Shown here: piece by piece, positions 2,516-29,043 of the stretch | Numbering within the stretch: position 1 is the first letter of the stretch | Layout: each line of letters begins with the position of its first letter | DNA from: Patescibacteria group bacterium | Lineage (GTDB): Bacteria > Patescibacteriota > Minisyncoccia > Phycocordibacterales > Phycocordibacteraceae | DNA length: 38,682 nt | Assembly: GCA_018971265.1 (NCBI GenBank) | Contig: JAGXBE010000003.1 | Location: 1 to 38,682, forward strand | Direction of reading: 5' to 3' | Notes under the pieces: model-generated | The model's input: the letters and a program-made list of their open reading frames with translations, nothing else | What the model was told of the DNA's origin: nothing | Databases searched by the model: none | Position numbers and translations under genes: made by a program

Positions 2516-4288
2516 TCAATCATTATCCCCCTCGGGGAAAAGCTCGCCGCCGAGCGTGTTGATTTCTTCAAAGGAAACCTCGCCGCCGAGGGCCTTCACG
2601 ATGGCATCCTCGCGCATGGTAAGCATGCCGCTCAAACGCGCCGCGCCGTAGATGCGCTCCTCAATCGGCTCCTTCAGCACGACCTGCTCAATCTTCTTAT
2701 CCATGCGCAATATTTCAAAGACGCCCATGCGGCCGTGCGTGCCGTTCGGGCATTCCGCTGTGGGGGCCGCATGATAGAACTCCTTGAAGGGCGGGAGTTT
2801 TTGGCGGTACTCTTCCGGCAAGTCGGCGAATTGCCGATCGAGGAAAAGTTTGATGCTGCCGGTAATCGGAAACGGTTTGCCGCCACCCTCGCAAAGCTTC
2901 TGGACAAGGCGCTGCCCGATAACGGCAATGAGTGTGGGGGCGATAAGAAACGGGTCGACACCCATGTCAATAAGTCGCGGGATCGCACCGGCGGCGGTGT
3001 TCGTGTGGATGGTCGAAAAGACGAGATGGCCCGTGAGGGCCGCTTGCACGGCAAGCGCCGCGGTTTCTTTGTCGCGGATTTCGCCAACCATGATGACATC
3101 GGGGTCTTGGCGCAAAATGGAACGGAGTCCGCTCGCAAAGGTGTACCCTATCTCGGGTCGTACCTGGCTTTGGGAAACGCCAGGAACCTCGTATTCAACG
3201 GGGTCCTCCAGCGATACAACGTTTGCCGTCTCCCTATCAAGTTCGGAAAGCATCGCGAAAAGCGTCGTTGACTTACCGGAACCGGTCGGTCCGGCGATGA
3301 GAATGATGCCGTATGGAACCTTCATCATGGCGCGAACCTTCACGAGCTGCTCTTCAGAAAGACCAACCGATTCCAGCGTTGCGGTAGCGGCTGATTGATC
3401 CAAGATACGCATCACGATCTTCTCACCGAACTCTGTCGGGAATGTGGATACGCGGAAATCGATGCGCCGCGTGTCCACGTTTGCCGAGAAACGTCCGTCC
3501 TGCGGTTTTCTCTTCTCATCAAGACGCAGTTTCGCGAGAATCTTAACGCGGGCAACTACCGCTTCGTGCATCTTCGCCGGAAGCTCGAGAGAGGTGTGTA
3601 GATCGCCGTCTTCGCGGAAACGGACTCGTGTCTTCCCCGGCGATGGTTCGATATGAATGTCGGACGCGCGGCCTTCAATGGCGTACCGCAGTATCGTGGA
3701 AACGATTTTCGTCACCGGGGCATCTTCTTTCAGCGCTTCGTGCGGGCCCGAAAGAGTAAGCGGTTTATCATCGAGCGCGGACTCCGCCACGGACGGGCTG
3801 TGCGGCGCGGATGGTTCCGGCTTGGCGGTTGTTTCGTATTCAGAAAGCGCTTTGCCGATCTCGCCTGAAAGGTTTTGGTATGCGTTTAGCACGCGGTCAA
3901 AGTCCTGTTTCGTAATGAGGAAGATCTTATAAGGAATTCCGGTTTGGCCCGAGATGAACTGCAGCGCATCAAGCGCCTCGATGTTGTCGGGATCGGTAAT
4001 CCCGACCTCAAGCGCACCATCCACCATCGTAAGCGGAACGAAACCGTAATGACGGGCGGAGTCAATGGGGATGTAGCCGAACACGTCTTCAGAAGCTGGA
4101 GGGTCGCCGAGTATGCGGGTGGGGAGTCCGTACTCTTTGCCTGCGACTTCGAGCGCGTCGCGAAGCGAAACGCCATGTTCGGTAAGCGCGTCCTCAAGGG
4201 GTCGGTTCTTGGCGATGTCCGCCTCAATCGCCACGCGGTCGCTTGGAGAAATGACGCCCTTGTCAAGAAGTAGTCCGAGAAGGTTCAT
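2516..4288 (-). CDS. pilB: PilB/GspE family pilus assembly ATPase
   Basis: ASDIHIEP, RKPQDGRF, GPTGSGKSTT, LRQDPDVIMVGEIRD, ALTGHLVFSTIHTN. Confidence 0.93.
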   Translation of the reverse strand: MNLLGLLLDKGVISPSDRVAIEADIAKNRPLEDALTEHGVSLRDALEVAGKEYGLPTRILGDPPASEDVFGYIPIDSARHYGFVPLTMVDGALEVGITDPDNIEALDALQFISGQTGIPYKIFLITKQDFDRVLNAYQNLSGEIGKALSEYETTAKPEPSAPHSPSVAESALDDKPLTLSGPHEALKEDAPVTKIVSTILRYAIEGRASDIHIEPSPGKTRVRFREDGDLHTSLELPAKMHEAVVARVKILAKLRLDEKRKPQDGRFSANVDTRRIDFRVSTFPTEFGEKIVMRILDQSAATATLESVGLSEEQLVKVRAMMKVPYGIILIAGPTGSGKSTTLFAMLSELDRETANVVSLEDPVEYEVPGVSQSQVRPEIGYTFASGLRSILRQDPDVIMVGEIRDKETAALAVQAALTGHLVFSTIHTNTAAGAIPRLIDMGVDPFLIAPTLIAVIGQRLVQKLCEGGGKPFPITGSIKLFLDRQFADLPEEYRQKLPPFKEFYHAAPTAECPNGTHGRMGVFEILRMDKKIEQVVLKEPIEERIYGAARLSGMLTMREDAIVKALGGEVSFEEINTLGGELFPEGDND

Positions 4289-4366
4289 CCCGTTAGAAAT
4301 TAGTACCGTTCATAAAATCAGCCCTTGGGATTATACAATTTATTCGTCTGTGATTTCTAACGGGAT
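4287..4366. repeat. Perfect 14-bp inverted repeat enclosing a 52-bp spacer with a -10 box
   Basis: ATCCCGTTAGAAAT at 4287-4300 and ATTTCTAACGGGAT at 4353-4366; TATAAT on the minus strand at 4335-4330. Confidence 0.9.
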
Positions 4367-4373
4367 TCATTAC

Positions 4374-4676
4374 TCATTTTGCGCTCATACCGGAGATTGG
4401 GGCGAACGGGTCGAGACGTCCGCTCGGTTCCGGAGAAACCTGCGTGGTGAGATCGACGAGCGCATTGAAACGCGCATCTGAAAAAATGCTGGTATCAAAT
4501 GAGATTGGCTGAAGCTCGTTAACCAGGGTCTGAAAATGCATCTGCGACTCGTTGGTCGTTGCGCTCGTGGTAAGCGGGGGTTGGTTTCCTGTTCCGGTAA
4601 AGAAATACCAGTAAGCGCCGCCTGCTATGACGAGAGTAGCGAGAATGGTGAGGATGGTGTTTGAATTAAATTTCAT
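4374..4676 (-). CDS. Small membrane-anchored pilus accessory protein (positional PilP analogue)
   Basis: N-terminal TM helix and a C-terminal GRLDPFAP motif resembling the PilP RDPF motif; follows pilO. Confidence 0.65.
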   Translation of the reverse strand: MKFNSNTILTILATLVIAGGAYWYFFTGTGNQPPLTTSATTNESQMHFQTLVNELQPISFDTSIFSDARFNALVDLTTQVSPEPSGRLDPFAPISGMSAK

Positions 4677-27231: not shown

Positions 27232-27434
27232 TCAGGATCGTTGCTGTTCCCGGTCTGAATAGTCTGGTAAGACGCGGGCGGTCCAGTAGAGAACAGCAAC
27301 GGTCCTGAGAAGGATGTTCCTCGGTCACTCAGGAGCAGACAGGGGTCTCGGACACCGAACGATACTCCGGTTTAAGGGAACAAATGGATATCCCCCGAGC
27401 TAGCTCAAAAGCTGCTCGGGGCTTTTATCTTTTT
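27232..27434 (+). ncRNA. Candidate structured ncRNA with two stem-loop domains and a terminator; family unknown
   Basis: 18-bp stem 27232-27249/27291-27308; second stem 27315-27321/27376-27382; terminator 27393-27421 with a T tract; TAAAGT at 27222-27227. Confidence 0.5.
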
Positions 27435-28841: not shown

Positions 28842-28868
28842 ACGCGCACTCTAGCATAACGCTTCCAC

Positions 28869-28900
28869 AAAATATCCCGTCTCATTGAGACGGGATTTTT
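28869..28900. terminator. Bidirectional intrinsic terminator
   Basis: ATCCCGTCTC-ATT-GAGACGGGAT flanked by A and T runs. Confidence 0.75.
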
Positions 28901-28902
28901 CG

Positions 28903-29043
28903 TGGAGCCATTCCCTGATGCAACTTCATTTTGCCAGGTGGGGTCCCCGCGCGGTAGCGCAGGAACGAGTTACGCTCGCATTGCTACCGACGACTTCGAA
29001 ACCCCGAGAATACGGCAAGTTGCGTTTAAAAAGAGTGGCTCCA
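28903..29043 (-). ncRNA. Probable 6S-like RNA (short rod with a central bubble)
   Basis: Nested stems TGGAGCCA/TGGCTCCA, GCAACTT/AAGTTGC, bubble, GGGGT/ACCCC, CGGTAGC/GCTACCG, CGAG/CTCG. Extended -10 TGG-TATACT lies 6 nt before the 5' end and a terminator follows the 3' end. Confidence 0.62.

Follow-up and report, generated by a model that had tools for sequence, protein, structure and literature searches.

An inverted repeat on the pilB start codon of a Patescibacteria genome is very probably a short copy of a mobile-element family

Results

A 78-nt element sits on the start codon of pilB

We studied the perfect inverted repeat that lies directly in front of pilB, the gene of the type IV pilus assembly ATPase, in contig JAGXBE010000003.1 of the Patescibacteria group bacterium assembly GCA_018971265.1. 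The whole stretch of DNA that was analysed (38,682 nt, here called the window) is one entire contig of a genome of 556 kb, which is divided over 43 contigs and about 97% complete. A reading made from the letters alone (the sequence-only reading) had offered three explanations for the repeat: an invertible promoter, an RNA stem that hides the pilB start, or a domesticated miniature repeat element. We conclude that it is very probably (probability about 0.85) a non-autonomous copy, 78 nt long, from a family of mobile elements found in Patescibacteria (Candidate Phyla Radiation, CPR) and not a switch. This conclusion is carried by a family of copies with common ends and target duplications, by empty sites in related genomes and by a coding relative with the same ends. 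It removes the tempting phase-switch reading of an inverted repeat with a TATAAT next to a pilus gene. The features at the site are the following.

4287..4300, proximal arm (3′ arm in gene orientation), ATCCCGTTAGAAAT on the plus strand, overlapping the AT of the pilB ATG
4353..4366, distal arm (5′ arm in gene orientation), ATTTCTAACGGGAT on the plus strand
4288..4365, minus strand, element proper, 78 nt, with 13-bp terminal inverted repeats (T)CCCGTTAGAAAT ... ATTTCTAACGGG(A) and a 52-nt interior
4366..4369, minus strand, upstream TGAA of the 4-nt target duplication; with A4370 it is the original pilB start (ATG 4370-4368)
4284..4287, minus strand, downstream TGAA of the 4-nt target duplication; with the element-terminal A4288 it is the present pilB start
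4293..4370, minus strand, leader mini-open reading frame (ORF) of 25 codons plus stop, MNPVRNHRRINCIIPRADFMNGTNF, from the old start codon to a TAA in the 3′ arm
4330..4359, minus strand, promoter-like consensus match, TAGAAA (4359-4354, in the arm), 18 nt, TATAAT (4335-4330)

As described by the sequence-only reading, the arms (4287-4300 and 4353-4366) are complementary at 14 of 14 positions and stand 52 nt apart. Together with the spacer they take up 80 of the 85 nt between the stop codon at 4374 and the pilB ATG at 4288, and the proximal arm ends with A4288 and T4287, the AT of that ATG. In gene orientation the junction reads TGA (4376-4374), GTA, ATGAAT (4370-4365), CCCGTTAGAAAT, 52 nt, ATTTCTAACGGG and the pilB ATG (4288-4286), so that the last base of the element, A4288, is also the A of the start codon. 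The spacer is AT-rich (G+C 19/52, or 37%, compared to 55% genome-wide) and carries the reported TATAAT facing pilB at 4335-4330, with a TACAAT on the opposite strand at 4334-4339. A perfect 14-mer inverted repeat within 100 nt is expected about 0.01 times by chance in 38.7 kb, and the one at pilB is the only perfect separated-arm repeat of at least 14 nt in the window.

The element has the terminal inverted repeats, the target-site duplication and the presence/absence polymorphism at an orthologous site that mark miniature inverted-repeat transposable elements (MITEs). The idea of a miniature repeat element is therefore supported as to its nature, which terminal repeats, duplications and empty sites bear out; this support does not extend to the word 'domesticated'. 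The pilB copy is a young one, with perfect arms and an intact duplication.

The same site is empty or differently occupied in relatives

PilB orthologues were found in all 40 same-genus genomes. The DNA upstream of pilB was compared for 19 same-genus relatives, one of which ends at a contig edge, leaving 18 that were informative. In 12 of these the upstream ORF and pilB are separated by at most 8 nt. Two relatives (G023 and G009) read AAATGAGTA directly followed by ATGAAC, which is the window sequence minus the element and one duplication. In three others the pilB start codon is occupied by different family members: the one in G029 (119 nt) has the same arms as the window copy, and the copies of about 110 nt in G014 and G005 have AAGC-type arms and look orthologous to each other. 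In the remaining three relatives 46 to about 120 extra nt precede pilB, with no recognisable arm pairs. By eye, an interior stretch of the G014/G005 element is also present in G064. Within this single genus, the pilB start codon has therefore received insertions no fewer than three times. The insertion alters the coupling of pilB to its upstream genes here and not in most relatives, which offers a natural comparison for expression.

Contigs from the metagenome runs X1/X2 represent a near-identical strain with one difference in about 850 nt of flanking DNA. Within the 52-nt interior (4301-4352), however, this strain differs from the assembly by nine substitutions and a 4-nt insertion. Judged from these sequences, such a local burst of change would not easily be explained by neutral drift; possible causes are conversion from a second copy, a renewed insertion and error-prone repair acting at the hairpin.

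Copies at unrelated genes in this genome and across Patescibacteria

The sequence-only reading had proposed to look for further copies in the genome and its relatives. Arm searches of the genome yielded 14 paired copies, which are located at unrelated genes on contigs C2, C3, C4, C5, C7, C8, C9, C15 (two), C17 (two), C18, C33 and C41, with interiors of 3 to 254 nt. Two further pairs (C11 and C27), with two mismatches and unrelated arm sequences, were left out as chance matches. The arms vary between copies (...AGAAAT, ...AGAGAC, ...AGACAA, ...AGATAA, ...AGAGGC, ...ACAAAT), yet the partner arms within each copy match even where copies differ.

The exact 12-mer arm occurs in 19 of 61 related genomes (12 of 36 other same-genus genomes and 6 of 24 from other families of the order), almost always in pairs of inverted arms separated by 15-275 nt, compared to 4 single hits for a reversed-pattern control. 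Five relatives hold 45 complete copies, which fall into size classes near 27-31, 75-79 and 112-119 nt. A scan with the 3′ arm plus ATG of a collection with one genome per prokaryotic species gave at least 123 loci. Among the 80 titles listed, 55 were CPR-labelled (Saccharibacteria, Kaiserbacteria, Paceibacterota, Nomurabacteria, Doudnabacteria and others). As the bare 15-mer is expected about 1000 times by chance in this collection, the presence of a partner arm is the meaningful criterion. Within 250 nt, 42 of the 55 listed CPR-labelled loci have such an arm; among other named taxa 3 of 17 loci do, and among unclassified metagenome-assembled genomes (MAGs) 6 of 8. In DNA comparisons of the named loci with this genome, the best matches, from Saccharibacteria and Kaiserbacteria MAGs, reach 71-74% identity.

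Several copies have features of their own. The copy at C7:5364-5423 (60 nt) has GAGAC-type arms, GCGCGC flanks and two internal GC hairpins. It lies in frame inside the gene of the NAD-dependent DNA ligase, where it adds PVRDKEPEAPDRSSTGVSNG, 20 residues (PVRD...VSNG), to the adenylation domain of LigA. A similar copy at C8:259-318 is also located inside an open frame. Together with the copy at C5 (1395-1457), which sits at the start of murD, these copies of 60-63 nt have a common three-way-junction layout of the arm stem and two hairpins. The hairpin sequences differ between the three and yet remain paired (by eye), and such pairing may reflect a structural requirement on the DNA or RNA.

The interior of the copy at C18:16943-17049 is a complete tRNA-Val(CAC) (ARAGORN; Rfam 69.5 bits). 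The copy itself lies within the anticodon-loop region (directly after TTCAC) of a second tRNA-like gene that no tool called intact, and a target duplication is not clearly recognisable. The location of this copy, and the GC hairpins of the C5, C7 and C8 copies, which differ in a compensatory manner, had raised the idea of a structured RNA or of a small intron. When the C18 copy was excised over 121 offset combinations, no convincing tRNA resulted.

Three copies are bare 27-nt hairpins made of the arms and a 3-nt loop (G000 C15:13875-13901, G010 C58:6937-6963 and G036 C1:102502-102528). Direct repeats of 6 nt flank two of these hairpins, and all three lie away from start codons; the one on C15 lies between a 600-aa ORF and the tmRNA gene. 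In a subfamily of 75-78-nt copies from relatives, also represented by C33:5825-5901, a GGGAGGA-like Shine-Dalgarno motif is seen by eye 10-20 nt into the interior. In some of these copies an ATG follows the motif, and at locus L160 this ATG is in the host frame and would add a 14-residue N-terminal extension. For annotation, this means that CPR start codons, small leader ORFs, in-frame 20-residue insertions such as that in LigA and 'intergenic' hairpins may often be footprints of the family.

The element rebuilds the start codon on which it sits

The anatomy of the family was studied in 66 copies collected with arm-only patterns, 6 from this genome, 45 from the five relatives and 15 from other relatives. 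The outermost base pair is complementary in all 66 (T/A in 55, C/G in 11), and therefore the terminal repeat is 13 bp long, with the family termini (T/C)CCCGTTAGAnnn ... nnnTCTAACGGG(A/G). An identical 4-nt direct repeat flanks 59 of the 66 copies. Likewise, 59 of 66 adjoin an ATG or GTG that is followed by at least 38 open codons, and in 57 copies an ATG lies six bases ahead of the element. The duplicated TG and the element's own last base, A or G, together rebuild the ATG or GTG of the host gene. Accordingly, five copies of the form ATGNNC...GTGNN have C..G ends and a rebuilt GTG. Tiny elements that sit on start codons in this manner keep their host genes translatable, which bears on the survival of mobile DNA where intergenic space is almost nil.

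Seven copies do not follow the start-codon rule, namely the three bare 27-nt hairpins, another hairpin of 31 nt and three copies of greater length. Clean duplications other than TG (CAAA, CCCG, AAAA, TTTA and TTCG) are found in five of them, and TG is therefore not required for insertion. The preference for start codons may be due to targeting rather than to selection. Two points weigh against this: selection against other insertions could give the same bias, and copies with other arm variants are located inside ligA, within a tRNA-like gene, close to rRNA and 15 nt ahead of the gene of RNase R.

A coding relative encodes a single-domain GIY-YIG nuclease

Two long copies contain a gene. A 275-nt copy in G054, with arms of exactly the pilB type, and a 278-nt copy at the pheT start on C41 (7666-7953) each encode a protein of 95 aa. 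Both proteins are single-domain GIY-YIG nucleases (PF01541, 60.9 and 52.7 bits, cut-off 22.6). Each ORF starts from the upstream ATG, begins with M-x-(x)-PVR(N/D) and ends in ...FL(F/S)LT(G/V), and its TGA overlaps the rebuilt ATG of the host gene. The nearest solved structures are UPF0213 BH0048 (1zg2, E = 1.3e-10) and EF2693, followed by SLX1. The homing-endonuclease-type model TIGR01453 scored 20.2 and 24.9 bits, below its cut-off of 56.05, and the matches span only model positions 4-36 and 4-81 of 215, indicating that the element-borne protein is the nuclease domain alone. Copies of 183-201 nt retain, by eye, remnants of the 3′ part of the nuclease gene. The genome's other small GIY-YIG gene (C3:4024-4242) has no family arms. 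A Saccharibacteria-labelled MAG locus (L064) is 72% identical to the 3′ part of the C41 copy and the pheT start.

The closest known parallel is given by the Ssn proteins. According to the main text of Chenal et al. (Nat Commun 2025, PMC11893778), these proteins (cd10448) consist of a single GIY-YIG domain and cleave single-stranded DNA at a hairpin repeat of 28 nt (NTS/SRM), and the loop of this hairpin can be replaced or extended with cleavage retained. The authors noted there that the repeat-gene-repeat layout resembles an insertion sequence and left a possible mobility of Ssn open. The term Patescibacteria has 0 occurrences in that main text, and start codons are not mentioned in it. As far as that text goes, the family resembles Ssn in its single-domain GIY-YIG nuclease of about 100 aa (95 aa) and in a short hairpin-forming repeat that occurs in many copies around genes. 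The loop tolerance fits the constant stem and the interiors of 3 to about 250 nt, and the bare 27-nt hairpins are similar in size to the 28-nt NTS. Unlike the described Ssn layout, where the gene lies between separate hairpins, the family gene is inside one split hairpin, the arms of which form its first and last codons. Also unlike Ssn, the family copies have target duplications and sit on start codons.

By analogy with the Ssn nucleases, the family nuclease may recognise the arm hairpin and mobilise the element in trans, without any flipping. Shared ends and the copies of intermediate size elsewhere suggest that the pilB copy descended from a nuclease-bearing element. A bolder proposal is possible, although we consider the odds to lean against it: the family would be a self-mobilising micro-transposon of about 280 bp, the sole gene of which encodes an Ssn-like GIY-YIG hairpin nuclease on a captured host start. 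Its short derivatives would persist in gene-dense CPR genomes through the rebuilt start and a translated leader from which ribosomes pass on to the host gene. If true, the family would stand as a new class of DNA transposon in terms of its enzyme and would rank with the smallest autonomous transposons. The pilB start of the pilus and DNA-uptake machinery would then be a place of repeated landing, occupied independently at least three times in one genus.

A number of observations weigh against the mobile-element explanation itself. The C41 copy is the only ORF-bearing copy of the genome, and its arms contain one mismatch and are of a different variant, so that the genome has no obvious mobiliser for the pilB copy. 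No similarity was seen by eye, in unaligned sequences, between the pilB interior and the nuclease gene. We know of no GIY-YIG protein that acts as a transposase. Finally, the apparent mobility of the family is deduced from genome comparison.

The data do not support an invertible switch

Phase variation of pilB and the genes behind it by an invertible promoter, the first explanation of the sequence-only reading, is not supported by these data. In such a switch, of the fimS or hin type, a recombinase would flip the 52-nt spacer and thereby toggle pilB-REC-pilT-pilC (REC, receiver-domain gene). The perfect inverted repeat does bracket a promoter-like match that faces pilB, and a serine and a tyrosine recombinase, one of each, are present in the genome. 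Both are on other contigs: the genome's only matches to Resolvase (PF00239) and Phage_integrase (PF00589) lie on C27 and C34, in agreement with the earlier statement that no recombinase is in the window. The serine recombinase match is in a 588-aa open frame and the tyrosine recombinase in a 346-aa open frame. Invertases are usually short, and a 588-aa frame is unlike that form.

We consider the switch very improbable, since the same arms bracket unrelated interiors at 13 other sites of the genome and at hundreds elsewhere, and target duplications and empty orthologous sites are found at the element. In addition, only one orientation was observed. Bridging contigs from four metagenome runs of two studies, two strain variants included, had the orientation of the window in 4/4 cases and no strand-change joint. 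A single orientation, which the sequence-only reading had named, for deep read sets and related strains, as the outcome that would refute inversion, is thereby supported at the level of contigs, where rare variants drop out. At one contig joint the spacer is replaced by 100 other letters, which fits a relative with a longer copy at the same site. The X1/X2 strain variant lacks the TATAAT (its box reads TATGCT). In the 113-119-nt class, moreover, an asymmetric interior motif faces the host gene alike in 26 copies, is opposite in 2 and is undetectable in 7.

Expression of pilB from within the element

In the pilB copy, the leader ORF extends through both arms; its stop codon is the TAA in the 3′ arm, which leaves 4 nt up to the pilB ATG. 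An open leader frame is present in 31 of the 54 short oriented copies, compared to 8 of 54 when the interior is reverse-complemented. In 1000 shuffles the mean was 13.3 +/- 3.0 open frames, with a maximum of 23 and none at 31, although the test overstates independence because the source genomes are related. Lengths of 1 modulo 3, in which the stop falls at the TAA, are commonest and open in 24 of 30 copies. The frame is open in 6 of 14 copies with lengths of 0 modulo 3, in which the leader is fused in frame to the host protein, and in 1 of 10 with lengths of 2 modulo 3. The excess of open frames points to translation through the stem and not to simple hiding of the start.

We tentatively propose, at slightly less than even odds, that pilB is translated by termination-reinitiation coupling through the 25-codon leader. 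We take as demonstrated the first step, the landing of the element on the pilB start codon in the original TGA-GTA-ATG junction. Ribosomes coming from the upstream ORF would then begin again at the old ATG and read the 25-codon leader, passing through the 14-bp stem, until they terminate at the TAA in the 3′ arm; a second restart would follow 4 nt further on, at the pilB ATG. The leader would in this way preserve the original TGA-GTA-ATG coupling to the upstream ORF. This proposal is weakened by the 23 of 54 copies that have interior stops and by the X1/X2 strain, in which the leader stops 13 nt before the pilB ATG.

The second explanation of the sequence-only reading was an RNA stem that hides the pilB start in read-through mRNA. 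If the element had become a translational regulator in this way, the 14-bp stem would sequester the AUG, and pilB output would be set by unwinding or processing, for example by RNase III. In the predicted centroid fold (-19.7 kcal/mol) the 14-bp stem is retained with little else, and it takes in the A and U of the pilB AUG. The closing pair is also kept in 66/66 copies, as T/A with ATG and as C/G with GTG. However, the overall fold is unexceptional (z = -1.86; 9 of 200 shuffles fold as well), the same stem precedes many unrelated genes and is not pilus-specific, and arm complementarity is explained equally well by terminal repeats that a nuclease recognises. We therefore regard regulation by the stem as unlikely.

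A third possibility is an outward promoter, TAGAAA-18-TATAAT, that would uncouple pilB-REC-pilT-pilC from pilMNO transcription. The sequence-only reading had seen no good -35. A consensus scan did pair TAGAAA with the TATAAT (10/12 consensus matches); shuffles of the same 900 nt gave a mean of 0.8 promoter-like sites, and the match is therefore not evidence of function. In the family, 28 of 54 copies have a -10-like box directed at the host gene and 19 of 54 have one directed away from it, and in the 113-119-nt class the boxes gather 13-16 nt inside the interior. This is a small difference, and hexamers of the kind arise by chance in AT-rich interiors. The opposite strand of the pilB copy also carries TACAAT and TAAAAT, and the near-identical strain is without the TATAAT, with changes at 4331 and 4332 inside the box. 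Uncoupling of pilB by such a promoter is likewise unlikely. A promoter contribution is possible, if weakly supported.

Relation to other mobile elements and switches

No published description of the family was found at title and abstract level, with subscription journals outside the coverage of the search. The accessible text of a survey of rRNA insertions in CPR bacteria describes GIY-YIG proteins encoded in insertions unlike introns (PMC11270868). Going by that text, these GIY-YIG-bearing insertions may belong to the same family.

The family shares with the Correia MITEs that its members are short, non-coding, present in many copies by genes, and equipped with terminal inverted repeats and a target duplication. 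Correia elements of Neisseria are co-transcribed with genes, and both families are able to form RNA stems and carry promoter-like boxes. Unlike Correia MITEs, the presumed parent of the present family is an element of about 280 bp with only a 95-aa GIY-YIG gene and not an insertion sequence encoding a transposase. Moreover, the insertion point is a start codon that the element rebuilds, and the interiors are highly varied although nearly constant in length.

Rickettsia palindromic elements are mobile palindromes that are inserted in frame in coding genes and translated; comparably, the C7 copy adds its 20 residues in frame to LigA. They differ from the present family in sequence and host clade; here, most copies are at start codons and a coding parent can be identified. 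The switches fimS (FimB/FimE) and hin have in common with the pilB site that short inverted repeats bracket a promoter-like segment just upstream of a pilus gene. In contrast to these switches, the pilB site lacks a cognate recombinase, its repeats also occur at other loci, and target duplications, empty sites and a single orientation are found.

IS200/IS605 and REP/RAYT elements are not known to make a target duplication. Their mobility or amplification depends on a small nuclease that recognises DNA hairpins, as that of the family may do, and they too have abundant non-autonomous hairpins, as discussed in the main text of PMC11893778, but they use HUH/Y1 enzymes, whereas the family enzyme is of the GIY-YIG type and a 4-nt duplication is the rule.

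The pilus gene cluster and other features of the window

The pilus gene cluster is located on the minus strand, and pilB is followed by the receiver-domain gene (REC), pilT and pilC.

7094-5931, minus strand, pilM
5879-5232, minus strand, PilN-like ORF (weak match)
5235-4681, minus strand, pilO
4374..4676, minus strand, 100-aa ORF at the PilP position, upstream of pilB; no Pfam family above cut-off
2516..4288, minus strand, pilB, type IV pilus assembly ATPase, 590 aa; Pfam T2SSE 390.7 bits, MshEN 54.7 bits

The gene in front of pilB had been called pilP-like. Its position agrees with this name, but no Pfam family above cut-off supports it. The C-terminal region of this ORF is conserved upstream of pilB in relatives, and so is the PilB N-terminus MN(L/F)LGLL, counted from the ATG at 4288.

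In Rfam searches, the sole match in the 1.1 kb around the site was to wcaG, on the opposite strand and below threshold (18.7 compared to 42 bits), and no Rfam family was found at any element in the window or at 12 loci around other copies. Three other identities of the repeat were considered and rejected. For a terminator, no T run follows the repeat, and the sole terminator-like match is at 4564-4578 on the other strand. The core motifs of an integron attC site are GTT and AAC, and by eye their order here is the reverse of that in attC. An operator for a regulator is ruled out by the target duplications and the unrelated host genes.

Two further inverted repeats of the window are unrelated to the family. 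The first, at 28864-28906, has 21-nt arms that are 90% complementary and a 1-nt loop. The second, at 27232-27308, has 18-nt arms that are 94% complementary and a 41-nt spacer.

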